From: Fibrobacteria bacterium
Lineage (GTDB): Bacteria; Fibrobacterota; Fibrobacteria; UBA11236
Assembly (NCBI GenBank): GCA_050486505.1
Contig: JBJHDK010000003.1
Location: 8,287-72,286, forward strand
Direction: 5' to 3'
DNA: 64,000 bases
A program made the translations under genes and the position numbers. The notes beneath the pieces were generated by a model. It worked only from the letters and a program-made list of their open reading frames with translations, did not search any database and was not told the DNA's origin. This document shows positions 6,974 to 63,537 of the stretch, one piece after another. Within the stretch, counting starts at the first letter, position 1; each line of letters opens with the position of its first letter.

Positions 6974-6976
6974 TTG

Positions 6977-6998
6977 AGTGACGAGTTACGAGTGAAGA
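6977..6998. repeat. Solo partial copy of the ACGAGTT-type heptamer repeat (shares TGACGAGTTACGA with the element at 10748)
   Basis: A 13-mer identical to the left arm of the 10748..10900 element. Lies between the convergent purU and ABC ATPase genes. Confidence 0.3.
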
Positions 6999-7879
6999 TG
7001 CGTTTCGGGATTTCGTGCAACTTCTCCCCGCTTCTCCATCCTCGGCACCGCATCGAGAAGCGTCCGCGTATACGGATGCTGCGGGTTCGCGAAAAGCTCC
7101 GCCGTCGGGCCTTCCTCGACCACCTTCCCCGCGTTCATCACCAACACCCGGTCCGCGATCGCGCGCACAAGGGACAGGTCGTGCGTGATGAACAACAGCG
7201 CCAGGCCCTCCTCGCGCTTCAGGTCGAGCAACAGGTTCACGATCTGCGCCTGCACCGACACGTCGAGTGCCGAGACCACCTCGTCGCACACGATCAGCTT
7301 CGGCTTGAGCCCCAGCGCGCGGGCGATGCACAGGCGTTGGCGCTGACCTCCCGAGAACGCGTGCGGGAAGCGCCCCAGTGCATCCTCGGGGAGCCCGACG
7401 CGATGCAGCAGTTCCGCCGCGGCGGCCTTCAACCCGGATGCGGGAACCATCTTGTGGGTGCGCAGCGGCTCCGCGAGCAACTCGAAGACAGTCAACCGTG
7501 GGTTGAGCGCCGTGTAGGGATCCTGAAAGATGATCTGGAAGTCGCGGCGGTGCGGCTTCCACGCGGAGGGATTCGTCGTGTCGATGCGCTTCCCCGAAAG
7601 GGTGATGTCTCCGGAGGTGGGCTGGGTCAGTCCCAACAGGGAGAACCCCAAGGTGCTCTTGCCGCAACCTGATTCCCCCACCAATGCCACGATCTCTCCC
7701 GGAAAGATTTCCAGTGACACGCCGTCGACCGCGCGCACGTGATCGACGGTGCGCTGCAGCAACCCGCCCGTGATCGGGAACCAGGTACGGAGGTTCCGTG
7801 CGGACAGCAGAGATCGGGGCGAATGGGTCTTGTTTCCCTCCAAGCTCTTGCCTCCTGTCTCATTGCCGATGTCAGCCAC
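6986..7879 (-). CDS. Peptide/nickel ABC transporter ATP-binding protein (DppF/OppF-like)
   Basis: Walker A GESGCGKST, signature LSGGQRQR, and the C-terminal oligopeptide-transporter domain. Likely GTG start at 7879 behind a GGGGGAA RBS, overlapping the upstream stop (GTGGCTGA). The longest ORF runs to 7912. Confidence 0.8.
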   Translation of the reverse strand: MADIGNETGGKSLEGNKTHSPRSLLSARNLRTWFPITGGLLQRTVDHVRAVDGVSLEIFPGEIVALVGESGCGKSTLGFSLLGLTQPTSGDITLSGKRIDTTNPSAWKPHRRDFQIIFQDPYTALNPRLTVFELLAEPLRTHKMVPASGLKAAAAELLHRVGLPEDALGRFPHAFSGGQRQRLCIARALGLKPKLIVCDEVVSALDVSVQAQIVNLLLDLKREEGLALLFITHDLSLVRAIADRVLVMNAGKVVEEGPTAELFANPQHPYTRTLLDAVPRMEKRGEVARNPETHLHS

Positions 7880-8855
7880 TCGTTCCCCCCTGATACAAAT
7901 GGCACGCCACATGATGCCCGGTGTGCGCCTCCGTCCATGCAGGGTCGGTCGTGCAAGGGTCGAAGACGCGCGGGCAGCGGTCGTGGAAGCGACACCCCGC
8001 GGGATAGCGCCCCGGCGGGGGGACGGATCCGGGAATGGGGCGGGGGATGGCGCCGGTTTCGAGGTTGGGCAGCGCGTCGAGCAGGCCGCGCGCGTACGGA
8101 TGCAGCGGATCCCGCAACAGGTCGAGCGCGGGCCCCGATTCGACGACGCGGCCGGCGTACATCACCGCCGCACGATCTGCGTACTGGGCGACGAGGTTGA
8201 GGTTGTGCGTGATCAGCACGATGCCGGTGCCGGTCTCGCGGCGGAGTTCCGCCAGCAGGTCGAGGATTTGCGCCTGAATGGTCACGTCGAGCGCGGTGGT
8301 CGGCTCGTCGGCGAGGATGAGCTTCGGCTTGAGCAACAGGGCGTGCGCGATGAGCACACGCTGCAGCATGCCGCCCGAGAGCTCGTGGGGGTAGGAGCGC
8401 AGCACGCGGTCGGGGTCGCGGAAGCCCACGCGGTCGAGCAGCTCGCGGATGCGCGTCGCGGGGTCTCCCGCGTGTTTATGGTGCCGGAAGGGGAAGCGCA
8501 GCTGCGTGCGAATGGTCTGCAGGGGGTTCATCGCGGCCGACGGCTCCTGGAAGATCATGGCGATGTCGGCTCCGCGTGTCGCGCGCATCTCGTCGGGCGG
8601 GAGCCGCAGCAGGTCGCGCCCGCGATAGAGCGCGCGGCCCGAGAGCACGACCGTGGAGTTCGCGGGCAGAAGCCGCAGCAGGCCGAGGCAGGTGACGGTT
8701 TTGCCGCATCCCGACTCGCCGACGAGCCCGAAGATCTCGCCTTCCCTGACGTCGAAGGACACGCCGTCGGTCACGGGTGTCACGCGCCCTTCGTCCCGGA
8801 AACCGAGCGAGAGGTTCTCAACACGCAGCAGGGGTTCGTTCGACGCGGCGGGCAT
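7872..8855 (-). CDS. Peptide/nickel ABC transporter ATP-binding protein (DppD/OppD-like)
   Basis: Walker A GESGCGKT, signature LSGGMLQR, and the C-terminal HPYARGLL oligopeptide domain. Confidence 0.8.
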   Translation of the reverse strand: MPAASNEPLLRVENLSLGFRDEGRVTPVTDGVSFDVREGEIFGLVGESGCGKTVTCLGLLRLLPANSTVVLSGRALYRGRDLLRLPPDEMRATRGADIAMIFQEPSAAMNPLQTIRTQLRFPFRHHKHAGDPATRIRELLDRVGFRDPDRVLRSYPHELSGGMLQRVLIAHALLLKPKLILADEPTTALDVTIQAQILDLLAELRRETGTGIVLITHNLNLVAQYADRAAVMYAGRVVESGPALDLLRDPLHPYARGLLDALPNLETGAIPRPIPGSVPPPGRYPAGCRFHDRCPRVFDPCTTDPAWTEAHTGHHVACHLYQGGTSG

Positions 8856-10742: not shown

Positions 10743-10747
10743 GCCAA

Positions 10748-10900
10748 TGACGAGTTACGAAATACGAATTACGAATTACGAGTTACGAATGACACGAAGG
10801 GCGTTCGAATCTTGGAACCGATGTTCCTGTCCGCCTTATGTCCTGGCGTTTTGATTCGTTCCTTGTTTTCCGTAATTCGTAACTCGTAATTCGTAATTTT
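10748..10900. repeat. MITE-like inverted-repeat element. Arms of 30-45 bp are built from tandem heptamers ACGA(G/A)TT, separated by an AT-rich spacer of about 76 bp
   Basis: Left arm tgacgagttacgaaatacgaattacgaattacgagttacgaatgac. Right arm cgtaattcgtaactcgtaattcgtaatt is its reverse complement. Intergenic, between the kinase and dUTPase genes. Confidence 0.55.
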
Positions 10901-11418: not shown

Positions 11419-12456
11419 CTACTCCAGGCAACCCTGTCCGCGCCGGATGTCGTTTACCCGGATTTCCCCGTCCTTGAAGCGGGCACGCATGCGCGTCTCC
11501 GAAGCTCCATCGTGGATGCATGCCGCAGGCAGCGCGACCGGACGGTAGAGGGGGGTCTCGTTGGGAAAGACTTCGTCGTCGGGGCGCACGTATTCGCCCA
11601 GCAGGATTTTGGGAGCGTCATTGACCCCCACCATTTCGACACGGATGAGCATCCCGGGAAGATCAGGGCAGACGTTGCTCACGATTTGCGCGAGACTGTA
11701 TTCATCCTCCACGTGACCGTTGACCTCGAAGGCGAAGGCGGTGCTCGTGAGACTGTCCAGAAGGCATGTGGCCCATGTGGAATCGGCATCGCCCAAGAGG
11801 CCGATGCGTCCTTCTTCCAGCAGGGCGGAGTCTTCCCCGGAGACTTGCACGAAGCGAAGGCCGCGGGGGTGTGCGCGAAAGCGGATTTCCGGCTCCAGGT
11901 GGGCGGCTTCCGGAGGCATCAGACCAAGATCGTACGTTCCGTCGGGAAGGATGGGAGCGAACCTGCTCGTGCCCCGGAGGAAGACGGTGCCCTCGTCGGG
12001 CAGGTATCCCGATTTAAGGCGGACCGATCCATTGAAAGACTCCGGCGCGCGCGCCAGAAAACGGGCCGTGTCGCGCTCAGTCGCCTTGAAGGCACGGACC
12101 GTGTCGAGAATGACCATGATGCCGAGCAGCCTTCCTTCGGCCATGTAAACTCCCGGTTGCCGGACAGTGAAGGACGTAAAGCCATGGGCGTCGGTTCGTG
12201 GGGCGGTGACAGCGGGCGAGGCTCCGGAGTCGGGGCGCGATTGCGCGTGGCGCAGCTCGAGTTCGACTCCCGCCACGGGGACTCCGGAGCTGTCCACCAC
12301 GCGGGCACGCATGTGGACGGGTTGGAGCCCGTTTTCGGTGTCGGTTCCCGTCCCCCCCATGCATGCTGAAAAACCGGACAACACGAGGAGAAACCCGGCA
12401 GCGAGTCGGACCAGTCCCCTGACAGGGAGATGCCGGCGGAGGATACCCCCGCTCAT
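11419..12456 (-). CDS. Lipoprotein, hypothetical (signal peptide plus a LSGFSAC lipobox-like cysteine)
   Basis: N-terminal hydrophobic segment ending in Cys. Overlaps the upstream TIGR02147 gene by 4 nt. Confidence 0.6.
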   Translation of the reverse strand: MSGGILRRHLPVRGLVRLAAGFLLVLSGFSACMGGTGTDTENGLQPVHMRARVVDSSGVPVAGVELELRHAQSRPDSGASPAVTAPRTDAHGFTSFTVRQPGVYMAEGRLLGIMVILDTVRAFKATERDTARFLARAPESFNGSVRLKSGYLPDEGTVFLRGTSRFAPILPDGTYDLGLMPPEAAHLEPEIRFRAHPRGLRFVQVSGEDSALLEEGRIGLLGDADSTWATCLLDSLTSTAFAFEVNGHVEDEYSLAQIVSNVCPDLPGMLIRVEMVGVNDAPKILLGEYVRPDDEVFPNETPLYRPVALPAACIHDGASETRMRARFKDGEIRVNDIRRGQGCLE

Positions 12457-13313
12457 TGCCGTTTCCTCCTTCCGCGTTTGCGCGGGCCTGTCGTCAAGGG
12501 AAAAAGCTGCATGTTCAAGTGGTAGACGCGCTCGGGCGATGGATCCGCCTTGACATGCTCGAGGATTTCACGACGCAGGGCGCGCACTTTTTCCACGATG
12601 ACGGAGTACACCTCCGGCGAAATGCTGACGGTCGTTCCGCTGAAGTAACGCTCATGCTTGCGGAACCGGTCGAGAGCCTCCACGGCGAGCTTCGCCATGG
12701 ACTGATGGAAGCGGGGGAGCAGCAGCGACTCCATGCTAGGGTCGGTTTTGAGCAACGCCGTCGCCGCGCGCAAACCGCCGTCGGCGTCGCGCGTGAGCAG
12801 GTCGAGGGCGTCGAGTAGTTCCACCGCTTTCTTGACACGCTTTGGCTGGATCGGGGGGACGAGCTGCTTCGCAAAATCCGAGGGGTTGTCACGGTAGGGG
12901 AGGAAGGCCAGCATTTCCCGGATCGCGACGTTGTACCAGTCCTGATAGTACTCGTACTGGTGACGCTCCAGGGTCGCGACCGAAGGCGGACACTTGAGTT
13001 CCATGACGAGGGCGAACTGCTTGTCCTTCTCCGCAAGGGTCGCCGCCTGGTTGAAGCGCACGAGAGCCTCGAAAAAAGCCGATTCCGGCGGGGCGAGCTC
13101 GAGTGCCCGCAGAAACTTCGGAATGCTCCCGTCGGTCAGGTCGTTGTGGCCTTCCATGACACGTTTGAGGTAGGTGGGGCCGGACATTCCCGCTTTTTTA
13201 AGGAAGGAGCGGTGCGAAAAGCCGCGTTTGTGGCTTTTTGACCACGCATAGAAATCACGCAGAAAGGCGCGATAATCGGTATACTCAAAAACTGACGGCG
13301 CTGGAGGGTGCAT
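12453..13313 (-). CDS. TIGR02147/DUF4423 family protein (Fibrobacter-type paralogous family, putative HTH regulator), copy 1
   Basis: N-terminus FEYTDYRAFLRDFYAWSK...GFSHRSFLKKAGMSGPTYLKRVMEG matches the family hallmark (YxDYRxFL...FSxRxFxxKAG). Confidence 0.7.
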   Translation of the reverse strand: MHPPAPSVFEYTDYRAFLRDFYAWSKSHKRGFSHRSFLKKAGMSGPTYLKRVMEGHNDLTDGSIPKFLRALELAPPESAFFEALVRFNQAATLAEKDKQFALVMELKCPPSVATLERHQYEYYQDWYNVAIREMLAFLPYRDNPSDFAKQLVPPIQPKRVKKAVELLDALDLLTRDADGGLRAATALLKTDPSMESLLLPRFHQSMAKLAVEALDRFRKHERYFSGTTVSISPEVYSVIVEKVRALRREILEHVKADPSPERVYHLNMQLFPLTTGPRKRGRRKRQ

Positions 13314-17165: not shown

Positions 17166-18423
17166 CCACGAGGAACACCCCCGTCCTCGCCAATTCTTCT
17201 CCCGCAATCGTGCGCAGGCGAATCTGGCAGGTGGCCGGGAGATTTTGGCCGGGCGGCATCCACATGCGCTTGTTGATGCCGGGGCGCGAAGGATAGCCCG
17301 CGTCGAATATCGTCCAGGTCGCTCCGCCGTTGCGGGTGAATTCCAGAACCAGTGTTTCCTGCGTTCCTGCTTCCCAGGCGATTTCCGTCGGCTGGCCCGC
17401 GCGTAGCGTGTCGCTTTCCGTCGGCACGATGAATGCCGGGAGTTCGATGGCCCCGTGCACGCCGATCGTCACCGTGTCCGAGGATCGGTGCGGTCCCATT
17501 GCCGCGGAGAGCGCGAAGCGGTAAAGGCCCGGCCTTGGAAATTGCACGCGCGTTCCGAGGGAGGTGGGGTTCTCGATGTGGGCCCGTGTGCCTTGGGGGA
17601 TCGGCGGCACCTGCCGCCATAGCAGGGCGAGCCTCGGATCCTGGAGGGATGCGCCCGATACGGTCCCCGCAAGAAAGGTCGGGGAACCGATCCACACCGT
17701 GCGGTCGGGCCCGGCCTGCACGACCGGCGGCACGGGCGGCGCGGGCGGATGCGGCCTGGGCACGGGCGGAGCATCGGGGTCGACCTGGTGGCGTCGCGGT
17801 TGTCCGGGAGTGATGGGCTCGGGCAAGGGCAGTTCGATGCCTTCGGACGTCAGCACGTGCGCCGGAAACTCGCCCTCGGGAATGGCCTCGAACACGAAGG
17901 TGCTGTCCACCATCACGGCCTGGAAGGGTGAACCGGGAACGAAGATCCGGTTGATCCCGGAATCATTGGGGAGATCGAGCTCCGCTTCGTAGCGCACGAG
18001 CCGCGAAACCGTGATGGATGCGGCCGGCTCGCCCGGGATCCCGTCGCGCGCGTAGCGTCCGGCGGCGGGGTCGTAGGAGAGTCGAAGCAACAACCCTCCG
18101 GTGGAGTCGTCGGCGACCAGCAGCACGTTGAAGGGAACGTGGCCGACGATGTCGTGCGCGGAGAGAATGATCCCGGTTCCATCCTCGACCCGCTTGCTGA
18201 CGATGGCCGAAGGGTTCAACGCGGGGTTCTGGTCGGATGCGTAGACGGCGAGGGATCCCGAGACGCGCGCGGCGACGCCCTCCCCATCGACGAAGGTGAT
18301 CTGCAACGGGTTGTCGACCTCGGAACTGCCGCCCGCGAGATGCCCGTCGCTGTTGCATCCCGAAAGTGCGAGCAGGGGAACCACCCACAGCGCCGCGCGC
18401 AGGTGACGTCCGAACGAGGTCAT
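17155..18423 (-). CDS. Lipoprotein, hypothetical (LSGC lipobox), Pro-rich central linker
   Basis: Signal peptide plus LALSGC. The 4-nt overlap with the upstream TIGR02147 gene implies co-transcription. Confidence 0.6.
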   Translation of the reverse strand: MTSFGRHLRAALWVVPLLALSGCNSDGHLAGGSSEVDNPLQITFVDGEGVAARVSGSLAVYASDQNPALNPSAIVSKRVEDGTGIILSAHDIVGHVPFNVLLVADDSTGGLLLRLSYDPAAGRYARDGIPGEPAASITVSRLVRYEAELDLPNDSGINRIFVPGSPFQAVMVDSTFVFEAIPEGEFPAHVLTSEGIELPLPEPITPGQPRRHQVDPDAPPVPRPHPPAPPVPPVVQAGPDRTVWIGSPTFLAGTVSGASLQDPRLALLWRQVPPIPQGTRAHIENPTSLGTRVQFPRPGLYRFALSAAMGPHRSSDTVTIGVHGAIELPAFIVPTESDTLRAGQPTEIAWEAGTQETLVLEFTRNGGATWTIFDAGYPSRPGINKRMWMPPGQNLPATCQIRLRTIAGEELARTGVFLVVSP

Positions 18424-19400
18424 GGAGATTCCGCCTTGCCTTCACCCGCGTCGAGCTCCGGGAGGCGACTGTTGGGAAACAACTGGAGGGTCAGGCTGTA
18501 GATGCGATCCTCCCCGCTGTCGCGGTCGAGGATCTCGCGCAACTCCTCGAGGAAGGAGCGGACGCGTTCCTTCACGGTGGCGAAGCCGCCCGGAGAGACC
18601 GTGAACATGAGCGCATTGTACTGGCGCAGCGCGGGCGGGACCTTGTCAAGAAGCTCTTGCGACATGCGCGTCAGTTCCAGCATGTGTTCGCGCGCGGCCT
18701 TTGCCTGCACGTCCTTCGGGCTGGAAATATGCCTTTCGGTGACCATGTAGCCGTTGGCCGTCCGCTTGATCAGGTCGAGATCGAGAAGAAGGCGGATGGC
18801 TTCGGCGACCTGGGTTTCGCTGACGGACGGGAAAAGCTTCCGGGCAATCGTTTCCGGGTCGCGCACGCCGGTTTCCATGCTGAAAAAGTTGCGTACGGCG
18901 CTGTAATGCCATTTCGAAAAAAACTCGAACTGGGACTCTCCCAGCACCCGGGCGCGTGAAGCCCGGAACTTCGAGAGTTGGTCGAAGAAATGATTCTTTT
19001 CTGCCATGCCCTTGGCTTGGTTGAATTGCACCAGCAGGTCGAAGTATTGCGCCTCCCGTTCCGGCAGGGCGAGTGCCGATGCGAATTTTACCCGCAAGGT
19101 CTGGCTGAGGTTGCGTCGCCCGCGAATGACCGCGGGCAGCAGGCTCGAGCTGGAGGGGGGGAGGCCGGCTTCCCGCGCGAAGGTTCGTTGCGAAAAGCCG
19201 GGGTCGTGGCTCCGTCGCCATGCGCAATGGTCCGCAAGGAATGCCCTGTAATCGAGATATTGCAGGGCCTCGGGGCGCTTGTCCGCGCGCGCGGACGTGT
19301 CGGAAACGGATCGGGGCATACCCCGGAGTATACTCTCAGGCGGGGGGATGCGGCTGTTGTTCCGTGATCCCGGCTGGGGACAAATCGTCCCGGATCGCAT
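18420..19400 (-). CDS. TIGR02147/DUF4423 family protein, copy 2 (start possibly internal, near MPRSVSD)
   Basis: LQYLDYRAFLADHCAWRR...GFSQRTFAREAGL matches the same family hallmark as copy 1. Confidence 0.7.
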   Translation of the reverse strand: MRSGTICPQPGSRNNSRIPPPESILRGMPRSVSDTSARADKRPEALQYLDYRAFLADHCAWRRSHDPGFSQRTFAREAGLPPSSSSLLPAVIRGRRNLSQTLRVKFASALALPEREAQYFDLLVQFNQAKGMAEKNHFFDQLSKFRASRARVLGESQFEFFSKWHYSAVRNFFSMETGVRDPETIARKLFPSVSETQVAEAIRLLLDLDLIKRTANGYMVTERHISSPKDVQAKAAREHMLELTRMSQELLDKVPPALRQYNALMFTVSPGGFATVKERVRSFLEELREILDRDSGEDRIYSLTLQLFPNSRLPELDAGEGKAESP

Positions 19401-37836: not shown

Positions 37837-38081
37837 GTTGCCTCCGAATGGCCGGGAGCCGGCCTGTTTTTGCAAAATTTCCCGGTTTTCCCTGAAATAT
37901 AGGCAGAACGGGAGGAAACGCAGGGGGAAGAGTCGGGGGGAGCCCCCGTGAAACGCTTCCCGGCGGGGGAATCGCGCGTTGAAATCCCGTCGTCGGGGAG
38001 TTAGGTTTTACTGCCTTAAAAATCGCATGATTTTGCGGAGTTTACAGGTTATTCGAGGACGCTAGGAAGCAAGGAAGCAAT

Positions 38082-38687
38082 ATGGCAGCAGGACCGAAGG
38101 TCAAAATTTCCCGTGCCTTGGGCATCGCCCTGACCCCCAAGGCCGCCCGCGTGATGGAGCGTCGCTCCTTCCCTCCCGGACAACACGGTCTGGCGCGCAA
38201 GAAGAGCCCGTCCACCTACAAGCTTCAGTTGCTTGAGAAGCAGCGCCTCAAGGCCACGTACGACGTGCCCGAGATGCAGCTCCGCAAGTACTACGAGCGA
38301 GCCACGCACAGCCACGAGTCGACCGGCACGGCCATGCTTGCCTTGCTCGAGACCCGTGCCGACGCGGCCATCTACCGCATGGGCTTCGCCCGCACCATCT
38401 ACGCCGCGCGCCAGTACATCGCGCACGGTCACTTCAGCATCAATGGCCGTCGCATCTTCACGGCCAGCCACCCGCTCAAGGTCGGCGACGTGATCGCGGT
38501 CGTGGAGAAGTCGAAGAACCATCCCCAGATCGTCGAGGCGCTCTCGCACTCCGGCAGCGTCGTGGTTCCCGACTACTACGAGGTCAACAAGGTCAAGATG
38601 GAAGGTCGCCTGGTGGCAAAGCCCCTGCGCGACCAGATCCCCGTGAAGCTCGCCGAGCAGCACGTGGTCGAATACTACTCGCGCTGA
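38082..38687 (+). CDS. rpsD: 30S ribosomal protein S4
   Basis: Canonical S4 N-terminus (PKVKISRALG...) and S4 domain. Confidence 0.9.
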   Translation: MAAGPKVKISRALGIALTPKAARVMERRSFPPGQHGLARKKSPSTYKLQLLEKQRLKATYDVPEMQLRKYYERATHSHESTGTAMLALLETRADAAIYRMGFARTIYAARQYIAHGHFSINGRRIFTASHPLKVGDVIAVVEKSKNHPQIVEALSHSGSVVVPDYYEVNKVKMEGRLVAKPLRDQIPVKLAEQHVVEYYSR

Positions 38688-45253: not shown

Positions 45254-48200
45254 TCAGAACCCGCCGAGCGTGAACCCCACGAAGAAGCGCGCCTGGCGCA
45301 CGTTTTCGAGGTAATCCCCGGGAGTGGCGTAACCGCGCCCCGCCCATTCCTGGAGGTAGACGTTTTCCTCACGGAGTTGGTTCCAGGGCTTGAAAACCAT
45401 CGCATACAGATCCATGGGGATACGGTGGTAGAACATGAAGGTTGCCGACACGCGCGCCCCGTAATCCATCAACAAGTAGTGTTCGCCGCGTGACAGCGCT
45501 CCCGGAAGGTTGTCTGGCGTTCGGTTGAGCACTGTGCCCGCGTTTCCGATCAGGCTCAGTTGGAGCTTGTTCAGCGAACTGAAGGGCGACGGTGGCTCCA
45601 GATAACTCCGGACCTTCAGGGGGAAGTCGGCCTGCACCCGGGTCCAGGTCATCGCCGTTCCCTGCAGGATGTCGCGCCCCCGGTACTGGAAGCTGTAGGG
45701 ATAGCCCGGCATGAAAAAGGCCAGACGATAGGGCATCACCCACAGGTTGGGGTGCAGTGAGGCGGCCTCGGTGCGGCTTGCCTGTGAGACGGCGATGCTG
45801 TCGCGCACCACGGGAAACTTGTGGGTGAAGAATCCGGTCTGGTGCTGCAGCGAGAGGGTCACGCGTTCTCCGTGCGACCAGGCTCCGAACCCTCCGAAGT
45901 CCATCTGCCACGGCGCGAAATCGGCCTTGGTGTATTGGAATGCGGGAACCGGTCGATCTTGCCAGAGAGCTTGCGCGAAGCCTCCGGGAATCGAGTCGGT
46001 GGGAATGGGCTCGTCCGCGTAGCGCGTCCACCATTGCGCCAGCGAGGCCTGGAACCCGAAGTATTGCGGCAGGGCGGTGCCGAAGGCGGGGCGGTACCAC
46101 TGCAATGTCGCGCGCTGGAAGAGGTGGCGGTGCAGGGAGGTTTCCAGCACCCTGTAGGAGTAGGGGAAGACCAGCTCCTGGCCAGTGGACTGGTTGCGGT
46201 AGCGTTCGGTCACCGACTCGTCGAAGACCACATTCTGGTTCCAGTAGCGTGCCTGCCACCACGTCCCGAGGAATCCGCCGCCCAGGCGCAGCCCGTTGAG
46301 TGGAAGCATCGTCTCGCCCTGCAGCACGTCGTAGGTGTACTTGATGCGGTCATCCACGCGAATGCTCGCGTCGTACAGGTCGACGCCGTCGGTGACCGTG
46401 TCGCGCAGGGTGAAACCGAACGCCTGGTGCCGCACGTCGCGCGACGCCACATAGAAGAGGTTGGGCGTCCAGCCATAGCGGTGGTGCCATGCGGTCACGC
46501 CGGACCATTGCCCTCCGTACGAAAGGCCGTAGTCGAGCTGCGTGCTCGCATCAACCTTCTTCGACATGTACCCGCCGAAGAATTGCGAAAGTCCTCCCGA
46601 GACGGGGCCGAGCGCGACCTGCAACCCGATGTCCACATTGAGGTCGGCGAAGGTGGTGTCGTCGAGGAACTGCGGCGAGACGCTCAGGTAGGGCGCGAGG
46701 TTCCATGCCACTTTCTTCACGCGCGGCTCGCGCGATTGCGCTGCCTTCGAATATTCCAGCCGTTTGGGGTGGAGGGGGGCCAGCGTGTCGGCCGTTCCCT
46801 GCCAGGGGGCTTCCGGAGTCAACTCCGCCGGGCCTCGGAAGATGCCGAAGCGCTGGTTTCGGTAGCCTTGGTAGTAGAGCTGCCCGGCGTGCAATTGCGG
46901 TTCCAGCGCCTGGGTGCGGTTGCGTGTCATGCGGTACAGGGTGTCGCCGGGCGGGAGCGCGAACGCGTTGTAGACCCCGTCGCGTCCATCGGTGGAGAAC
47001 AGCAGCGTATCCCCCGTGAAGCGCAGGTCGCGATACGACGCTTCCTCCAGCGGGGTGACCAGCCGCACGGAGTGCCCCGCGGCGACGTGTAGCGAGTCCG
47101 GGAAGGTCGCCGAGTCCTCGAGCGCGGCGAAGGGGTCCCACGCGGGGACGTCGGCCGCCACGGCGGCGATGGCCTCGCGGCCGTGGCGGCCGAGCACGAA
47201 GTAGATGCTGTCGGCCGCAGGGTTGTAGCGCGGGGTGTAAACCTGTTCGCCGTTCGTGAAGCGCGTAAGTTGGCGGATGCGTCCCGAGGCGTCCATCACG
47301 GCGACATTCGAGCTGCCGCGCTCGAAGCGGGCATATACGATGGTGCCCGACTCGGTCGGGTGGTAGGCGGCATCGGAAGCCCGCTCATGCCAGGTGAGTC
47401 GCCGCCATTTTTCCCGCTCCGGTACGCGGGCACGGAAGGCGTACTCCCAGATGTCGCTGTAGGGCGAACCCCAGGCGTTGCGCGTGGTGAGCAGGCGCGT
47501 GCCGTCATGGTTGAATTCGAGCCCGGCCGACCCGAACTCGCGGCTGCGCCCCCCGGGAAGGTGCAGGGGATCGTGGGCCACCGCCGGCTCGGGCAGGGAG
47601 AATCGCGGGCGCAGGGCGGGGTGGGCGCCTGCAGGGAACCGGAAGTCCGGTGCCGGGGACGCGAGTCCCGGAGCGCTGCGCGGCGGGGAGTCCCCTCCCT
47701 CGGCGGGATAGTCCGTCACGGGTTCCGCCGAGCGGCCTTCCTCCGGCCCCCCCACTTCCTTCCAATGGATCCAGTTGAGCGGGAAGCGGCGGTCGTCGTT
47801 GCCCAGCCAGGCCATGTACCGGCCGTCGCGCGAGAAGGCGAGCGATTGCACGTAGCTTCCCTTCATGTCGGCGTCGGCGGGGACATCTTCGGGAAGTTGT
47901 TCGAAGTCGCCGTAGGTTTCGGCCAGATAGTGCGTCCATTCGGCGTAAAGGGCGGAGAGAGGCCTGCCGAACGCTTCCTCGACGGCCCGCCCGAAGTGGA
48001 ACAGGGGCTTGGGGAAGGCGAGCTCGCGGACGGCGTCGATGCCGTCGCGGTCGCGCAGCCAGCGGAGGAAGGCGTAGCCGGTGTTGTAGACGCGCTCGGC
48101 CTGGACCCAGTCGCCGTCGAAGGTTTCGATCTCGCCGAGCGTGGGCAAGGTGCCCGTGAGCCAGGCGTCGCGCACGATCATGTCGCGCTGCGAGTCCCAC

Positions 48201-48757
48201 GTGTCGAAGCCTGCCTCCTCGGCCTCGAGCTGGGCGATGCCCTCGATCCACCAGTTGGGAGCGGCGACGGGGATCCACGGCAACGTCAGCCCGTAGTTGA
48301 TGCGGCGGTTGAAGGTGTAGCCGCCGAGCATGGCGTGGCTGAAGGGAGTGAGACGGGCCTTCTGGCGCAGACTGAAGACGTGCGCGAGCTCGTGGACGAC
48401 GACGTTGCCCAGCCAGTTGCGCCGCCCGCGCATCACCCAGTTCATGTGGGGCAGGTAGATCTCCACGCGGGAGAAGGGGTAAATGGCGCTTCCGTTCGCC
48501 ACGTCGCCGCGGTCGGAGAGAAAGATGTCGATGATCTGGTAGTCGCCGTAAGCGTCGTAGGCGCGGGCGAGGGTCGGCCAGACCGCCTCCGAAATGCGAA
48601 GGATTTCACCGGCGACCTGTTCGTGCTCCTTGGCGAAATAAATGCGGTAGTGCTGGCTTTGCAGCATCTGGGCATTTTGCGCGAAGGCTCCCGTGGAGAG
48701 CAGGATGAGCAGTGCGATCCACGGGGTTCCGGGGCGAAAGAAAGGACGGAAAGTCAT
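45254..48757 (-). CDS. Large secreted protein (1167 aa): N-terminal zincin-like HExxH domain, then a TolB-like beta-propeller, then a C-terminal putative outer-membrane beta-barrel
   Basis: Signal peptide. VVVHELAHVF. Propeller-like repeats (WLGNDDRRF, YSDIWEY, SIYFVLG). Barrel-like C-terminus ending ...FFVGFTLGGF. Confidence 0.7.
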   Translation of the reverse strand: MTFRPFFRPGTPWIALLILLSTGAFAQNAQMLQSQHYRIYFAKEHEQVAGEILRISEAVWPTLARAYDAYGDYQIIDIFLSDRGDVANGSAIYPFSRVEIYLPHMNWVMRGRRNWLGNVVVHELAHVFSLRQKARLTPFSHAMLGGYTFNRRINYGLTLPWIPVAAPNWWIEGIAQLEAEEAGFDTWDSQRDMIVRDAWLTGTLPTLGEIETFDGDWVQAERVYNTGYAFLRWLRDRDGIDAVRELAFPKPLFHFGRAVEEAFGRPLSALYAEWTHYLAETYGDFEQLPEDVPADADMKGSYVQSLAFSRDGRYMAWLGNDDRRFPLNWIHWKEVGGPEEGRSAEPVTDYPAEGGDSPPRSAPGLASPAPDFRFPAGAHPALRPRFSLPEPAVAHDPLHLPGGRSREFGSAGLEFNHDGTRLLTTRNAWGSPYSDIWEYAFRARVPEREKWRRLTWHERASDAAYHPTESGTIVYARFERGSSNVAVMDASGRIRQLTRFTNGEQVYTPRYNPAADSIYFVLGRHGREAIAAVAADVPAWDPFAALEDSATFPDSLHVAAGHSVRLVTPLEEASYRDLRFTGDTLLFSTDGRDGVYNAFALPPGDTLYRMTRNRTQALEPQLHAGQLYYQGYRNQRFGIFRGPAELTPEAPWQGTADTLAPLHPKRLEYSKAAQSREPRVKKVAWNLAPYLSVSPQFLDDTTFADLNVDIGLQVALGPVSGGLSQFFGGYMSKKVDASTQLDYGLSYGGQWSGVTAWHHRYGWTPNLFYVASRDVRHQAFGFTLRDTVTDGVDLYDASIRVDDRIKYTYDVLQGETMLPLNGLRLGGGFLGTWWQARYWNQNVVFDESVTERYRNQSTGQELVFPYSYRVLETSLHRHLFQRATLQWYRPAFGTALPQYFGFQASLAQWWTRYADEPIPTDSIPGGFAQALWQDRPVPAFQYTKADFAPWQMDFGGFGAWSHGERVTLSLQHQTGFFTHKFPVVRDSIAVSQASRTEAASLHPNLWVMPYRLAFFMPGYPYSFQYRGRDILQGTAMTWTRVQADFPLKVRSYLEPPSPFSSLNKLQLSLIGNAGTVLNRTPDNLPGALSRGEHYLLMDYGARVSATFMFYHRIPMDLYAMVFKPWNQLREENVYLQEWAGRGYATPGDYLENVRQARFFVGFTLGGF

Positions 48758-51218: not shown

Positions 51219-51306
51219 AATGGACCCGGTGGACCCGATGGACAGCATGGACTTTATGGACAGAAAATGGATGACCGCCTTGTCCATAAAGTCCATGCTG
51301 TCCATC
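51219..51306. repeat. Perfect 26-bp inverted repeat (GATGGACAGCATGGACTTTATGGACA / TGTCCATAAAGTCCATGCTGTCCATC) embedded in a run of 9-bp ATGGAC-type direct repeats
   Basis: Arms at 51237..51262 and 51281..51306 with an 18-nt spacer. The right arm abuts or overlaps the htpG stop codon. The ATGGAC motif recurs about 7 times with a 9-10 nt period. Confidence 0.6.
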
Positions 51307-53288: not shown

Positions 53289-53975
53289 GTGGACGCCAAG
53301 GAACGCGCAGGAATCTGGGCCGCCTCGCAGGTCGAGAACGGGATGGCGGTGGGGCTGGGAACCGGGTCCACCGCGGACTTTTTCATCAGGGAGCTGGCCC
53401 GCCGCGTCCGCGAGGAGGGGCTCAAGCCCCGGACGGTCGCTTCCAGCTCGAATGCGTCCACCGACCTTGCCGCGGGCCTCGGTCTCCCCGTGATTCCCCT
53501 CGGCGCGGCGGCCGACCTGGATCTCTACGCCGACGGGGCCGATGAATGGGATCCTGCGAAGCGCCTGCTCAAGGGGCGGGGCGGGGCCATGGTGCGGGAA
53601 AAGCACCTCGCGCACATGTCGGCGCGCTTCCTCGTGCTCGTTGACCCCTCGAAGCGCGTGGAGCGTCTCGGAAGCCGGTTCGCGATTCCGGTCGAAGTGC
53701 TGCCCTTCGCCGCGGAGCTGGTGCGCCGGGAGCTCGAGTCTCTGGGCGCCCACGAGGTGGTTTTGCGCCCGGCCCTCAACGGAGGAGTCCCCTGGATCAC
53801 CGATCAGGAGAACCACATCCTCGACGCCCGCTTCGATCCGACCGGCGATGTCGCCGGGCTCGACGGCCCGTTGGCGGCGATTCCCGGAGTGGTCGGCCAC
53901 GGACTTTTCACCCGCTACGCGGCCCGTTCGACCATTGTGGTGGGACACCCCGATCGTGTGGAGGTGATTCCATGA
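53289..53975 (+). CDS. rpiA: Ribose-5-phosphate isomerase A
   Basis: GLGTGSTA and DGADE motifs. GTG start. Confidence 0.85.
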   Translation: MDAKERAGIWAASQVENGMAVGLGTGSTADFFIRELARRVREEGLKPRTVASSSNASTDLAAGLGLPVIPLGAAADLDLYADGADEWDPAKRLLKGRGGAMVREKHLAHMSARFLVLVDPSKRVERLGSRFAIPVEVLPFAAELVRRELESLGAHEVVLRPALNGGVPWITDQENHILDARFDPTGDVAGLDGPLAAIPGVVGHGLFTRYAARSTIVVGHPDRVEVIP

Positions 53976-54598
53976 GAGGTCTTCCCGTCGATCGTCGCGA
54001 ACTTCCGCAGTGGCTTCTGAAGACCTTCCTCAAGGGGCTGCTTCTCGTTGTCCCGCTGACGGTGACGCTGGCCGTGTTCTGGTTCGTCTTCGTCAAGATC
54101 GATGGACTCCTGGGGTTCTCCATCCCGGGCCTGGGGTTCATCCTCACCATCCTTATCATCATCGGCGTCGGCGCGCTGGGTTCGACGCTGCTCGTCAACC
54201 GCATCGTAATCGACATCGAGAAGGCCGTGGGGCGCGTGCCCATGGCGAAGCTCATTTACTTCTCCCTCAAGGATTTCGTCGGCGCCTTCGTCGGCGAAAA
54301 GAAGCGCTTCAATCGGCCTGCCATGGTGTCGATCGCGGGCACGGGTGGCGAGGTCAAGATCCTCGGTTTCGTGACCGCCGACGGACTCGACATTCCCGGC
54401 ATGGAAAACTCGGTGGCGGTCTACCTGCCGCAGTCCTACAACTTCGCGGGCAACCTCATCCTCGTTCCTCGCGAGCGGGTGACCTTGCTACCGCAGGGAG
54501 AGAGCTCGCGCTGGCTGACCTTCATCGTCTCGGGCGGCGTGTCGGGAGGCTCGGATCTGACGGGGAATCCGGTGGAGACGCAAGTGCCCCCGAAGTGA
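53972..54598 (+). CDS. DUF502-family membrane protein
   Basis: Two N-terminal TM helices plus a conserved cytoplasmic domain. ATGA overlap with rpiA. Confidence 0.65.
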   Translation: MRGLPVDRRELPQWLLKTFLKGLLLVVPLTVTLAVFWFVFVKIDGLLGFSIPGLGFILTILIIIGVGALGSTLLVNRIVIDIEKAVGRVPMAKLIYFSLKDFVGAFVGEKKRFNRPAMVSIAGTGGEVKILGFVTADGLDIPGMENSVAVYLPQSYNFAGNLILVPRERVTLLPQGESSRWLTFIVSGGVSGGSDLTGNPVETQVPPK

Positions 54599-54606
54599 AG
54601 AGAGGA

Positions 54607-54783
54607 CAATGGGGCAATAGAACAATAGAGCAATGCAACAATAGTACGCAGCTCTACATGGTCACTCCTGTGCGCGGTCTGTGGTACCCGTCTTCGGCTG
54701 CGACTTTGTTGTTTCGCTCTTCCGCCTTTCCGTAGCCTTGTCGCTCTATTGTTCTATTGCCTCATTGTTGCATTGTTCTATTG
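54607..54783. repeat. MITE-like inverted-repeat element. Arms of about 40 bp are built from tandem 8-mers CAATAGAA/CAATGCAA, separated by a 97-bp spacer
   Basis: Left caatggggcaatagaacaatagagcaatgcaacaatag. Right ctctattgttctattgcctcattgttgcattgttctattg. Same architecture as the element at 10748. Lies between convergent genes. Confidence 0.55.
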
Positions 54784-54797
54784 AAAAACTCCTCCTC

Positions 54798-55718
54798 CTA
54801 CCTCAACCCTTCCTCCAGCTTCCGGTCCATGTGCGAATCGTCCACGGGATCGAGGTGGATGTTGATCGACCAACGACCTTTCTCGAGGCCGCGGATGCGC
54901 ATCTCGATCTCGTCGGCTACGCGGTGGGCTTTGCCCAGGGGCATGTGTTCGTTGAAGACAAGATGGAATTCCACGAAATTCACTTCGCCGGAACGACGGG
55001 TCTTGAGCTCGTGCATGCCGTTCACCAAAGGTGAATGTGTCATGGCGATTTCCTCGATTTTTTCCACCAAGCCATCGTGGAGGGCACGATCCATGAGCAT
55101 GTCGTAAGCCTTGCGTAGCAGGGGAATCGCCTCGCGCATGATGTAGAGGCCCACGAAGATCGCGAGAAGTGGGTCGGCCAGTTCCCACCCACTGGCCAGG
55201 ATAATCAGCATTCCGAGGAGTACGCCGGCGTTCGCCCAAACGTCCATCCGGTAATGGAGAGCGTCGGCCTCGAGCACCAGGCTGCGCGACTTTCGCGAGG
55301 CGGCGCGCAGGTAGAGCACCAGAGCGGCTGAAACGAGCATCGAGACGACCATCGCCCCCACGGCGAGATTGAGACCCGAGGAATCGAGCGGGACCGGCTC
55401 CACGATCTTGCCGATCGCCTTGTACAGGATGAAACCCGCCGAACCGAGGATCAGAACGCTTTCGAACAGGGCGGCGATCCCTTCGAGTTTGCCGTGACCG
55501 TAGTTGTGCTCCGCGTCTCTGGGCTTGTCGGCGACCCGCACCGTGATCGCGTTGAACAGGGAAATGATGAAGTCCAGGAATGAGTCCACCGCCGAAGCCA
55601 GAACCGCAATCGACCCCGAGAGGATTCCTACGATGGTCTTGAGGACAGCAAGTGAAAACGAGGTGGCGGTGGTAACCAGCGTCGCGCGACGGGGGACGGA
55701 AGATTTCGGCGGGGTCAT
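54798..55718 (-). CDS. czcD: Cation diffusion facilitator family transporter
   Basis: CDF TM domain with HxxxD motifs and a C-terminal cytoplasmic domain. Confidence 0.85.
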   Translation of the reverse strand: MTPPKSSVPRRATLVTTATSFSLAVLKTIVGILSGSIAVLASAVDSFLDFIISLFNAITVRVADKPRDAEHNYGHGKLEGIAALFESVLILGSAGFILYKAIGKIVEPVPLDSSGLNLAVGAMVVSMLVSAALVLYLRAASRKSRSLVLEADALHYRMDVWANAGVLLGMLIILASGWELADPLLAIFVGLYIMREAIPLLRKAYDMLMDRALHDGLVEKIEEIAMTHSPLVNGMHELKTRRSGEVNFVEFHLVFNEHMPLGKAHRVADEIEMRIRGLEKGRWSINIHLDPVDDSHMDRKLEEGLR

Positions 55719-61023: not shown

Positions 61024-63537
61024 TCACTTGCCGATGCGGATGCCGGCGAATGCCCCGGGCCAGAGGCTTACGTTGTCGTTGATGGTGCGGAGGTAGGGGA
61101 GGTCGGTCCCGGTGAGGGGGACGTCGGTATTGATGTGCGTCGCAACGTTGTACGAAATGCCGCCGAAGACGGAGAAGATCGGAGCCGCCTTCCAGCCCAG
61201 CGCGACGCGCAGGCGGGTCCATTCGGTGGTCACGTCCCCGTCGTCGAACGAGAACCCCTTGGGTTCGAACAGTGTGCTGTAGAGGAGATCCGGTTCGACG
61301 AAGAGGGGCGTGCCCGGGATCCCGAAATGGATTCCGGTCCCGAACGTGGGAGCGATCAGGGTTTGGTCCGCGAGAGGACGGGTGCCGACCGCCAGGATCG
61401 AATAGACGGAGCGAACCCCCGTCCTCAGGCCCGCGTACGCCGTTCCGGTTTCATCCGCCCAGGATTGACCGTGAAAGGAACCCTTGCGGCTGATGTTGAC
61501 GAGCCCGATCGGGAAACCCGACTCATAGTCGCTCGAGAGATTGATGAGCCCGATCTGGTGCCCTTGCACGGTGCCGGCAAGGTTCAGCACCCCGGCTCCC
61601 TGTACCCCCTGGAGCGATCCGAAGGCCATGTTGAAAACCCCCGAGGCCTGGACACCCTCGACGCCACCCGCGGCATTGAAAACGCCCGCTCCCTGTCCGC
61701 CCTGGACGCTGCCGGCGGCTGCGTTGAAGATTCCCGCTCCCTGTCCGCCCTGGACGCTGCCCGCGGCCAGGTTGAAGATGCCTGCGCCCTGCCCGCCCTG
61801 TACATTTCCGGCCGCCATATTGAAGATTCCTGAACCCTGTCCGCCGTACACATTCCCTGCGGCCATGCTGAAGATCCCCGCGCCCTGCCCGCCGTGGACG
61901 CCTCCCGCAGCCATGTTGAAAATGCCTGCGCCCTGCCCGCCGTGAACCCCCCCGGCCGACATGTTGAAGATTCCCGCGCCTTGGAGACCGCGAAGGCTGT
62001 CGGCGGAGATGTTGAAGATTCCCGAGAGTTGGCCTCCCCTCACGGTGTCGGCGGAGATGTTGAAAACTCCGGAGCCTTGCCATCCCTCGACACCGCCGCC
62101 GGCGATGTTGAAGATTCCCGCGCCCTGGACCCCGCGGACGGATCCGCCTGCGATCCCGAAGACGCCCGAGATTTGCGCCCCTGAAAGTTCCTCGCCCACG
62201 ATGCTGCCGACCTGGTTGAGTTGGAACCCCCGCAGCCCGCCCTCGACGGCATTGATGCCGACGGCGGCCTGGTATCCCTCCAGGTCACCCCGTGTCCGGT
62301 TGAAGAGGAAGGAAAGCTGTCCTCCCCGCCTGTTGGCGTGCGCGTCGGTCGCCAGCAACGCGATCTGGGTGCCGTGCCAGTCGTGCCTTTGCACGTCGTA
62401 AAAAATCGAGGAAGAAAACCCCGGCTCCCCGTCGTCGGGAACGCGCTGAAACTCTCGCCGCGCCGAAGCCGTGCCGCCGCGTGTCACGGTCGGTTCCCCC
62501 GACACGGGACGGAAGGAGGCGGGGGTGAGCTGCGTGGCCTGCCCTTCCGTCAGGGTGACGCGGGCCATGCTCCAGTCGGCGCCGCGCAGCAGGCGCACGC
62601 TGTAGGTTCCCGGCGCGAGACCGATGCGCATTTCGCGGCCTGCGGGTTTGTTCAGCTCGGCCGCGAGCTGGTCGAGGCTGTCGCGCAGGAAGAGACGGCC
62701 GTGCAGCGCCTCCGGACGCTCGAGGAAGGCCGATGCCTGGCGCAGGTCGGTGAGCACGATGTCGCCGCTGCCGCTGAGCTGGATGTCGTAGGCGGCATGC
62801 TGCGGGCCTCCCCGCGTTCTCTCGGTGCGCGCCAGTGTCTCGTGGTAGGCGAACTGGTAGGCCTCGTGCAGGGTCACGCGCCCGTCGCGCGAGGCGTCGG
62901 CGGCGCCGCGCAATCCCGTGTTCAGCGCATGGGTGAAGAACGATCCGCCCACGCGGTCGCTTTCCTGCGCCACCTCGCTCTCCGAGGAGGAGGTGAGGAT
63001 CGCGTAGCCTTCAGAGCGTGTGGACTGGTCCACGAGAAACGCGGGAACGTGCTGGCCGCCCTTGATGCGCGTCAGCGCGCCCGAGGCGCAGGCATCCACC
63101 ACGGCGATGCGCACGTCGGCATCGAGCCCGTTCATGCCGTCGCGGAAGGACCGGTACGAAAACCCTTCCCTGCCCAGCAGCAGGCCGCGCTCGTCGGCGT
63201 GCCCGGAGTAATACACGATGGCCTCCACGCGTTCTCCCGCGCGCCTCAGCGACGCGGATTGCCTGCGCAGGTCGGAGAAGGCGCGGGCGATGCCTGCGCT
63301 GTCGGGGTCGAGCAGCACCACCGCATCGGCCGGATCGAGCCCGCCGAGCTCCACCAAGGTGCGTTTGAACGCGGCGGCATCGGATCCGGCGTAGAGCAAA
63401 CGCTCACGTCCCTGACCCCCATCGTGGTGCCCGATCAACAGGGCGACGCGCCGGGTGTTGCCGTCACCGGTGAACGCCGGGGAGGGGGTGGCGCTCCAGG
63501 CCAGCGCGCATGCGAGAAACAGGGCGAGGTGTTTCAT
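61024..63537 (-). CDS. Caspase-like (peptidase C14) domain protein with about 15 tandem 16-aa Gly-rich repeats and a C-terminal putative membrane/beta-barrel domain
   Basis: Signal peptide. Caspase His/Cys dyad context (IVYYSGHADE, AVVDACASG). Repeat GAGIFNMAAGxVxGGQ about 15 times. Confidence 0.7.
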   Translation of the reverse strand: MKHLALFLACALAWSATPSPAFTGDGNTRRVALLIGHHDGGQGRERLLYAGSDAAAFKRTLVELGGLDPADAVVLLDPDSAGIARAFSDLRRQSASLRRAGERVEAIVYYSGHADERGLLLGREGFSYRSFRDGMNGLDADVRIAVVDACASGALTRIKGGQHVPAFLVDQSTRSEGYAILTSSSESEVAQESDRVGGSFFTHALNTGLRGAADASRDGRVTLHEAYQFAYHETLARTERTRGGPQHAAYDIQLSGSGDIVLTDLRQASAFLERPEALHGRLFLRDSLDQLAAELNKPAGREMRIGLAPGTYSVRLLRGADWSMARVTLTEGQATQLTPASFRPVSGEPTVTRGGTASARREFQRVPDDGEPGFSSSIFYDVQRHDWHGTQIALLATDAHANRRGGQLSFLFNRTRGDLEGYQAAVGINAVEGGLRGFQLNQVGSIVGEELSGAQISGVFGIAGGSVRGVQGAGIFNIAGGGVEGWQGSGVFNISADTVRGGQLSGIFNISADSLRGLQGAGIFNMSAGGVHGGQGAGIFNMAAGGVHGGQGAGIFSMAAGNVYGGQGSGIFNMAAGNVQGGQGAGIFNLAAGSVQGGQGAGIFNAAAGSVQGGQGAGVFNAAGGVEGVQASGVFNMAFGSLQGVQGAGVLNLAGTVQGHQIGLINLSSDYESGFPIGLVNISRKGSFHGQSWADETGTAYAGLRTGVRSVYSILAVGTRPLADQTLIAPTFGTGIHFGIPGTPLFVEPDLLYSTLFEPKGFSFDDGDVTTEWTRLRVALGWKAAPIFSVFGGISYNVATHINTDVPLTGTDLPYLRTINDNVSLWPGAFAGIRIGK
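61534..62265 (-). repeat. In-frame 48-bp tandem coding repeats (about 15 copies) encoding the GxGIFN 16-aa repeat
   Basis: CTGGACGCTGCCGGCGGCTGCGTTGAAGATTCCCGCTCCCTGTCCGCC-type units recur with 48-nt periodicity. Spurious ORFs appear on other frames here. Confidence 0.6.

Follow-up and report, generated by a model that had tools for sequence, protein, structure and literature searches.

A predicted intergenic hairpin of inverted tandem octamer arrays in a Fibrobacteria bacterium, with an inner segment that is inverted in a close relative

The window analysed here is a stretch of 64,000 nt from a Fibrobacteria bacterium (assembly GCA_050486505.1, contig JBJHDK010000003.1, positions 8,287 to 72,286). 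Within it, two convergent genes, one encoding a DUF502 membrane protein and the other a czcD/FieF-like cation diffusion facilitator (CDF), are separated by 199 bp between their stop codons, and this gap is filled by a 177-bp element made of two inverted arrays of tandem octamers around a spacer (Table 1). The position of the element and the identity of its convergent neighbours, proposed in a first-pass annotation, were confirmed by the sequence and by Pfam. Because it lies wholly between two stop codons, the element is non-coding, and its head-to-tail units fall within the 5-11-nt range of arrays of the long-motif simple sequence repeat (SSR) or short tandemly repeated repetitive (STRR) type. 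The named homologues of the flanking proteins came from Fibrobacterota/Fibrobacteria metagenome-assembled genomes (MAGs).

The arrangement of tandem 8-mers in inverted arms around the spacer, also noted in that first annotation, was recovered by inspection of the sequence, by a repeat search and by TRF. The repeat search returned a family of direct repeats on either side, with a unit spacing of exactly 8 nt in both arms, and TRF called both arrays. The five octamers of the left arm can be summarised as CAATNNNN, and their reverse-complement counterparts, again five, make up the right arm. Over their full length (38 nt in the repeat search) the inverted arms are 74% complementary, and the permuted repeat registers described earlier resolved into two pairing registers that are shifted relative to each other. 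The outer ends of the spacer are themselves degenerate octamers; positions 54718-54743, for example, read CAATAGAG CGACAAGG CTACGGAA in reverse complement. The spacer had been described as lower in GC, and the opposite is the case: the two arms together have 36% GC and the spacer 59%, with 63.5% for the window as a whole.

The pattern CAATN4CAATN4CAAT matched six times in the window, each time within the element, where shuffled sequences gave an expectation of 0.10. Across the ten units of the element the CAAT core was invariant, with 0 changes as against 14 in the N4 half. A reading of this core as a protein-binding site was considered and dropped: the units are not independent of one another, the cross-phylum sample described below was picked on CAAT, and the core is CAGT or CGAT in relatives. 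The idea that the 8-bp phasing reflects the helical repeat of DNA was likewise rejected, as the three elements of this design in the window have periods of 7, 8 and 9.

Table 1. Coordinates of the element and its parts, of the flanking genes and of two sister elements (positions in the window)
Feature	Position	Strand	Description
Left arm	54607-54646		Five tandem octamers: CAATGGGG CAATAGAA CAATAGAG CAATGCAA CAATAGTA
Spacer	54647-54743		97 nt, unique; 59% GC
Right arm	54744-54783		Five octamers on the opposite strand; reverse complement: CAATAGAA CAATGCAA CAATGAGG CAATAGAA CAATAGAG
Main pairing register	54606-54631 with 54743-54768		26 nt, 96% complementary; stem of the minimum-free-energy fold
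Alternative pairing register	54623-54642 with 54764-54783		20 nt, 95%; shifted by two units
Inner hairpin	54638-54715		Predicted fold; last unit of the left arm plus CGCAGC pairs with GCTGCGACTTTGTTG within the spacer
Inverted block	54614-54779		Aligns with positions 850-1016 of L144 in reverse complement, 74% identity
DUF502 membrane-protein gene (PF04367)	53972-54598	+	Pfam; stop codon 9 nt before the element
CDF gene, czcD/FieF-like	54798-55718	-	Pfam Cation_efflux and ZT_dimer; stop codon 15 nt past the element
Heptamer sister element	10746-10898		AATTACG (6.4 copies) and CGTAATT (4 copies) in inverted arms; spacer ~80 nt
Nonamer sister element	51220-51305		ATGGACNNN nonamers; 27-bp perfect hairpin overlapping the htpG stop codon

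An identical element in the same orientation was present in a second assembly (Logan run SRR31311414, contig L126), on a contig that runs straight through it. This makes an assembly artefact unlikely, with the reservation that the two assemblies may rest on the same reads.

We compared the gap with that of the closest relative, a sequence from JGI metagenome 3300073325 (L144) found through protein clusters at 90% identity. The DUF502 genes of the two are 95% identical in amino acids and 88% in nucleotides, and the CDF genes 91% and 84%. In L144 the gap measures 240 nt and also holds an inverted pair of octamer arrays, at 843-883 and 986-1026, each arm having five to six units that are mostly CAGTACAG/CAGTACAA, with some CAATAGAA. 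As in the window, an array orthologous to the left arm comes right behind the DUF502 stop codon. Both flanks of the two loci align directly, with the genes in the same orientation. The spacer, in contrast, aligned with its counterpart in reverse complement, over its whole length and with a local score of 38.5 (null 9.2 +/- 1.7, z = 17.6); in direct orientation the score was 6.0, no better than the null of 6.5 +/- 1.0 (z = -0.5). The outermost arm units have stayed in place and the inner units have been flipped together with the spacer, which places the breakpoints of the inversion inside the arms. This pattern fits a crossover or strand switch between the arms, and not excision followed by re-insertion. 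The difference in orientation is real, since perfect stretches within the arms do not exceed ~19-26 nt, shorter than the assembly k-mers, and the orientation seen in the window was recovered in the second assembly.

Although the arms of these two genomes are built from different units, they remain fully paired. When the outer stem of the window was set against the reverse complement of L144, every one of its pairs (23/23) was kept in both genomes; seven had changed on both sides and none was broken. Equally good results came from 4 of 500 column shuffles, and sliding the partner by one to three columns lowered pairing to 26-70%, with at most one pair changed on both sides. Identity over the spacer was ~72-74%, as compared with 78% in the neighbouring intergenic region. 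We conclude that the arms co-evolve, and the inversion indicates that they interact. What is new here is this combination: an inner segment that is inverted in a close relative, between arms that carry different units and are still fully paired. The first-pass annotation had regarded motifs that are unique to their loci and vary freely among close relatives as the mark of neutral slippage products. Half of that description applies, in that units and copy numbers vary and the motifs are locus-specific; the other half does not, because the arms change together.

A more distant relative was represented in Logan run SRR12687296 by two contigs (L001 and L127) that overlap by 23 nt inside the array. 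Its DUF502 and CDF proteins are 91% and 80% identical to those of the window, with coding nucleotide identities of ~75-80%. Right after the DUF502 stop codon lies an orthologous direct array of at least eight units (...CAATAGAA CAATAGAG CAATAGAA CAATGGAG CAATGGGG CGATGGGG CGATGGGG CGATGGAG), longer than that of the window; beyond it come an unrelated spacer of ~115 nt and then a 7-mer array, CTTTACC x3-4, which adjoins the CDF stop codon. The two ends of the gap therefore carry different direct arrays (L127, 1786-1808 and 1922-1979), CAAT/CGAT octamers on the DUF502 side and CTTTACC heptamers on the CDF side, and a separate 11-bp GC-rich hairpin (ATGTTCGGGG...CCCCGAACAT) stands between them. 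An inverted CAAT arm is lacking from this gap, which also folds no better than its shuffles (z = -1.1), and its spacer has no detectable homology to that of the window or of L144 in either orientation. The presence of the direct array without an inverted arm suggests that the inverted arrangement is young or easily lost. Across the three genomes, copy number and unit type vary in whole units, which is the signature of slippage: five CAAT units here, at least eight in the SRR12687296 relative, and five to six of another type in L144.

Relatives more distant again (L002-L005, with 67-71% identical DUF502) have an htrA-like gene, and sometimes one more, between DUF502 and CDF. No such element was found between the two genes in these genomes, where the gap is uninformative.

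Predicted folding of the element as RNA was stronger than that of shuffled sequences on both strands (z = -6.4 on the plus and -7.2 on the minus strand), and the L144 element also folded beyond its shuffles (z = -4.2 and -3.5). The inner helix of the window element is predicted in L144 too, with changes there on one side only. Both arm mismatches in the window become G-U pairs on the plus strand, the sense of the DUF502 mRNA. The stem is AU-rich (36% GC) and encloses a loop of ~100 nt; it is followed by AAAAAC on the plus strand and by UCCUCUCUUC on the minus strand. The element thus has neither the short GC-rich stem nor the U-tract of a canonical intrinsic terminator. A terminator scan placed no site at the element and no other terminator-like site near the DUF502 or CDF gene; a canonical terminator is present elsewhere in the window, at ~26750. 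Rfam returned no match at the gathering score in the whole window and none at E <= 1 in 54550-54850, and the window contains no tRNA or tmRNA genes. A scan of 54599-54797 for sigma-70-type promoters found no site, although it may not cover the promoter type of this phylum.

The window contains two further elements of the same design (Table 1), and the first-pass view that the three share one architecture with unrelated units, of 7, 8 and 9 nt, held up. Both sister elements sit between co-directional genes: the heptamer element between those for an APH-family kinase and a dimeric dUTPase, and the nonamer element between htpG and an EamA gene on the minus strand. Relatives whose dUTPase is 84-85% identical have no heptamer element between the APH and dUTPase genes. 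No relatives at >=90% identity that span the sister elements were found in the APH, HtpG and EamA clusters, and the sole dUTPase relative (P0241, contig L128) starts inside the gene.

Two observations concern these sister loci. Logan contig L145, from the same sample as L126, has its start (positions 1-35) precisely where the right heptamer arm of the element at 10746 meets the spacer. The arms of that element share just 24-27 identical bases, fewer than the k of 31, yet the contig breaks there; a drop in coverage at the hairpin or a mixed population of inversion or copy-number variants could be responsible. At the second locus, three Fibrobacterota lineages have short tandem arrays, or hairpins built from repeats, in the htpG 3' flank. 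Their units are entirely unrelated, so that the position recurs and the sequence does not. In L002 this flank (6863-6990) has an imperfect inverted pair of the ACAGCA/TGTTTTGC type, and in L005 (4120-4176) it has TTTCATA x4.6 and CCCCTC x4.3.

Arrays of this kind extend well beyond the phylum. Five consecutive CAAT-N4 units, searched for in one genome per species with a chance expectation of ~1 by our own estimate, were present in at least 120 genome stretches. The matches listed came from Bacteroidota, Acidobacteriota, Chloroflexota, Ignavibacteriota, Gemmatimonadota, Binatia, Desulfobacterota and others, and many were degenerate, like the window element. Among the ~127 arrays in the matches listed, 17 inverted pairs (~13%) were recognised by a partner array on the opposite strand within 400 nt, as in L033, L085, L096, L106, L115 and L030; a further inverted pair, in a metagenome (L142), has units nearly identical to those of the window element. 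These cross-phylum pairs often fill the entire gap, and in the matches listed they lie between co-directional genes in nine cases, convergent genes in two (three with the window element) and divergent genes in two. Such mixed contexts indicate no special link to convergent gene ends. The design itself is thus found in many phyla, with units other than those of the window element.

Two broader proposals of the first-pass annotation were not borne out by these results. The elements do not form a lineage-specific class, as CAAT-N4 arrays are spread over many phyla, inverted pairs recur among them, and hairpins of tandem heptamers have been published. Nor is a terminator at convergent gene ends the rule: just one of the three window elements is convergent, the cross-phylum pairs are mostly co-directional, and the U-tract and GC-rich stem are lacking.

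Several other features of the array survey were recorded. Among the inverted pairs listed, the order ATTG...CAAT was ~4 times commoner than CAAT...ATTG (13 vs 3-4). Many CAAT-type octamer arrays of other phyla in L006-L125 end a few bases from a start codon; examples are found at the genes for dihydrofolate reductase (L010, ~7850-7940), ATP synthase beta subunit (L099, 3317-3403), an ABC ATPase (L121) and groEL (L011). The window has a start-codon-adjacent case of its own, a direct octamer array of AGGAAGCA x3 at 38056-38080. It stops 1 nt short of the gene for ribosomal protein S4 (38082-38687), whose start codon follows, and each of its units includes a Shine-Dalgarno-like AGGA. Heptamer arrays of TAACTCG, TAACTTA and TAATTCG in unrelated genomes (L089, ~6740-6830; L073, 6960-6999) resemble both the CGTAACT/CGTAATT units at 10871-10898 of the window and the published TAACTGA repeat (5/7 bases).

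Repeats and duplications of a different kind also occur in the window. A 48-nt tandem repeat at 61655-62127 (9.2 copies, 74% matches) encodes 16-residue protein repeats within a large minus-strand gene (61024-63537) whose product has a caspase (Peptidase_C14) domain. Two paralogous DUF4423 genes (12453-13313 and 18420-19400, minus strand) lie 5 kb apart, and around this pair are several large open reading frames (ORFs) without a Pfam match, such as 45254-48757 (1167 aa).

The element had been called similar to a miniature inverted-repeat transposable element (MITE), and its mobility was assessed from several directions. A search of the window and of 145 fetched loci turned up no second copy of the spacer or of the element as a whole. 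A 21-mer of the spacer had 0 matches in JGI metagenomes; a 19-mer of the arm had nine, all in unrelated low-GC organisms and several of them by chance in coding DNA. Plasmids and phages, searched with the element by blastn, contained no match. The flanks, GAAGAGAGGA directly before the first CAAT and AAAAACTCC directly after the last ATTG, share no direct repeat, and there is thus no target-site duplication. None of the 51 ORFs of the window encodes a transposase or recombinase domain (Phage_integrase, Resolvase, Recombinase or Y1 transposase). Relatives did not provide an empty site: L144 has the orthologous element, and the SRR12687296 relative has the orthologous direct array. The terminal inverted repeats of a MITE are present, but dispersed copies, a target-site duplication and an empty site are absent in the data searched, and the MITE-like label did not stand.

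The explanation that we favour, with a confidence slightly above even, is that the element is a vertically inherited, non-mobile hairpin of the intergenic long-motif SSR kind, which changes by slippage, in which exchange between the arms preserves complementarity and has produced the flipped spacer, and whose effect is that of a generic 3'-end hairpin. Under this explanation, replication slippage would add, remove and replace units in steps of 8 nt. The second arm would have arisen as a reverse-complement copy of the first, through template switching or recombination between the arms; replication template switching makes reverse-complement copies and repairs stems (Monttinen and Loytynoja, PMC8794818). 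Continued exchange from arm to arm, by recombination, gene conversion or replication template switching, would maintain complementarity, and the same exchange would have flipped the intervening segment, at least once after the split from the closest sampled relative. Transcription of either convergent gene is expected to place an AU-rich stem of 23-30 bp at the 3' end of the mRNA. This stem would most plausibly act as a generic hairpin that hinders read-through or 3' exonucleases between DUF502 and CDF, such that pairing would matter and sequence would not. By analogy with what has been proposed for repetitive extragenic palindromic (REP) and STRR hairpins, a generic effect of this type is probably all that the element exerts.

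Several points weigh against this explanation. The co-evolution of the arms comes from two genomes only, in which selection for pairing and homogenisation from arm to arm are indistinguishable. The joining of L001 and L127 depends on a 23-nt overlap within a repeat, and the array length given for that relative is a minimum. Strains L002-L004, which are 99.98% identical, have no array indels, so that slippage is not fast at that scale. A role in termination is weak for an element without a U-tract or a short GC-rich stem. The description of the element as single-copy holds for the 64-kb window and the collections searched.

The alternative that fares best, though we hold it unlikely, is that the element is a selected cis-acting RNA, a stem in the 3' untranslated region whose role would be that of RNase III site, stabiliser or bidirectional insulator, with selection keeping the pairing and slippage contributing noise. 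The 23 conserved pairs with their seven two-sided changes in two genomes would be expected of such an RNA, as would the G-U identity of both mismatches in the sense of the DUF502 mRNA, the stable fold of L144, and the want of any other terminator-like site near either convergent gene. However, the compensatory changes are replacements of whole units, exactly what copying from arm to arm yields. The hairpin is also missing in the next relative, as the heptamer sister element is from its orthologous gaps; the whole element works equally well when flipped; and no Rfam family matches it.

Inversion of the inner segment in two close genomes with co-linear flanks also raises the prospect of a phase-variable inverton, in which a recombinase supplied in trans, or RecA, reversibly flips the ~100-bp segment and so aims an antisense promoter or a one-way terminator at DUF502 or at CDF. 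The length of the arms (20-40 bp) and the size of the segment match known invertons, and a population mixture could cause both the start of L145 at a heptamer arm edge and the break of the SRR12687296 contigs in the array. We nevertheless consider this improbable. Each sample shows one orientation, with L126 matching that of the MAG, and dedicated machinery is not required for one flip over ~12-16% nucleotide divergence. The 51 ORFs of the window yielded no tyrosine or serine recombinase domain, although one may be encoded elsewhere. The element lies between two 3' ends and so has no gene to switch on, a scan of the spacer for sigma-70-like promoters was negative, and the spacer is no better conserved than the neighbouring intergenic DNA.

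Less probable again is that the element is a purely neutral by-product, slippage arrays plus an accidental inverted duplication in a dispensable gap, with no cellular effect. In agreement with neutrality, relatives show a rapid turnover of unit type, copy number, orientation and presence, spacer divergence was reported as at or below the level of neighbouring intergenic DNA, and the arrays show no association with gene class or gene orientation. Against it stand the near-perfect complementarity of the arms, kept in two genomes, and the recurrence of arrays in the same kind of place, such as the htpG 3' flank in three lineages; the mechanism alone can explain both.

Finally, a MITE or foldback mobile element, a non-autonomous transposon with terminal inverted repeats built from tandem subrepeats, is suggested by the total size of 177 bp and by inverted, tandemly repetitive arms on either side of a spacer, an architecture like that of eukaryotic foldback elements, but with a single copy, no target-site duplication, no transposase in the window, relatives that hold the element or half of it at the orthologous site, breakpoints inside arms whose outer parts are in place, and three window elements each with different arms, this reading is largely refuted and keeps almost no credence.

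The favoured explanation, an SSR hairpin that maintains itself by arm exchange, can be set beside repeat systems described in other bacteria. The GGGAATC heptamers of Xanthomonas are intergenic, occur as inverted pairs at 70-75 sites in each of two genomes and may form stem-loops; their lengths differ between the two species, the single or paired type is usually kept, and no link to mobile elements was seen (Rehm et al. 2015, PMC4692102). The window element resembles them in having units of more than 6 nt, an intergenic position in a genome of ~65% GC, inverted pairs capable of forming stem-loops, changes of length between relatives and no mobile link. It differs in that Xanthomonas uses one G-rich, G-quadruplex-capable unit genome-wide (~186 sites), whereas every element in the window has an AT-rich unit to itself, repeated at a period of 7, 8 or 9 and free of G-tracts, and in that the arms are split by a spacer of ~100 nt, which is inverted in a relative.

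The STRR heptamers of cyanobacteria form hairpins, for instance between hupS and hupL, with a function that is unknown and may be transcript stabilisation (PMC2670836). By the title of one report, the RNase P RNA gene contains them as well (Vioque 1997, cited in PMC2858038). They share with the window elements short tandem units in non-coding DNA that can form hairpins, and both are also found between co-directional genes. In contrast to the locus-specific octamers of this Fibrobacterota element, STRR reuse a few heptamers throughout the genomes of filamentous cyanobacteria.

Arrays of the TAACTGA heptamer, known from Beggiatoaceae, Cyanobacteria and Bacteroidetes, lie beside start or stop codons (MacGregor 2015, PMC4679880); strains differ by 7-nt indels and contigs break inside the arrays (PMC4679880). 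Short intergenic arrays that often adjoin start or stop codons, indels of whole units, assembly breaks and a patchy distribution over phyla are common to these and to the arrays described here. Unlike the window element, TAACTGA arrays are nearly all direct (one indirect set in 170), have a fixed unit, lie mostly just upstream of start codons and have a proposed translational role. Within the 64-kb window each unit type was restricted to one locus, and the genome-wide unit that characterises STRR, GGGAATC and TAACTGA repeats was not found there.

Further comparisons concern palindromic and invertible elements. REP sequences, with the bacterial interspersed mosaic elements (BIMEs) and REP doublets (REPINs) that they form in Proteobacteria, are extragenic palindromes, located at gene 3' ends or between co-directional genes, that act as mRNA 3' stabilisers or read-through barriers. 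REPs carry GTAG/CGTC tags (PMC3733652). The window element is likewise a palindrome of gene 3' ends, with its sisters between co-directional genes, and it is by analogy that a REP-like role is proposed for it. It is otherwise unlike REPs, which are high-copy, conserved in sequence, tagged and mobilised by REP-associated tyrosine transposases (RAYTs), and whose arms are not tandem subrepeats; here the element is single-copy, its arms start with CAAT and carry no GTAG/CGTC tag, and no Y1 transposase domain was detected in the 51 ORFs. Invertons are phase-variable invertible promoters, such as fimS and the capsule promoters of Bacteroides. They too are short segments between inverted repeats that are found in both orientations. 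The orientations of the window segment differ between genomes only, however, with no invertase nearby, no promoter or gene to switch, and arms made of tandem repeats. The arms of eukaryotic foldback elements are built of short tandem repeats, and like these and like MITEs the window element is small and has inverted arms; unlike them, it has no target-site duplication, no multiple copies and no empty site in relatives, and the arms differ among the three elements of the window.

We conclude that the element belongs to a known but poorly understood kind of repeat, from which it differs in phylum (Fibrobacterota), in its 8-nt period, in its locus-specific units and in its spacer of ~100 nt. One may speculate further that inverted tandem-array pairs, from Fibrobacterota to Bacteroidota and Acidobacteriota, are a widespread and so far unrecognised class of self-maintaining invertible segments of intergenic DNA, in which recombination of the repetitive arms in multiple registers flips a ~100-bp cassette without an invertase and reorients a terminator or antisense signal. 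We regard this as a long shot; if true, it would amount to a recombinase-independent form of phase variation.

Tandem repeats with units of 7-9 nt are among the least understood repeats of bacteria, over-represented in the intergenic DNA of some phyla and unsettled in origin and function. The three genomes compared here form a series: a direct array only, an inverted pair, and the same pair with its inner segment flipped and its units replaced yet complementary. This series shows arms that exchange information and are able to invert the DNA between them. Arm exchange is a concrete way for such hairpins to outlast the turnover of their own sequence, and it follows that covariation in repeat-built stems need not signal selection on RNA. 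In practical terms, such elements interrupt short-read assemblies and are open to being mistaken for MITEs or structured RNAs.

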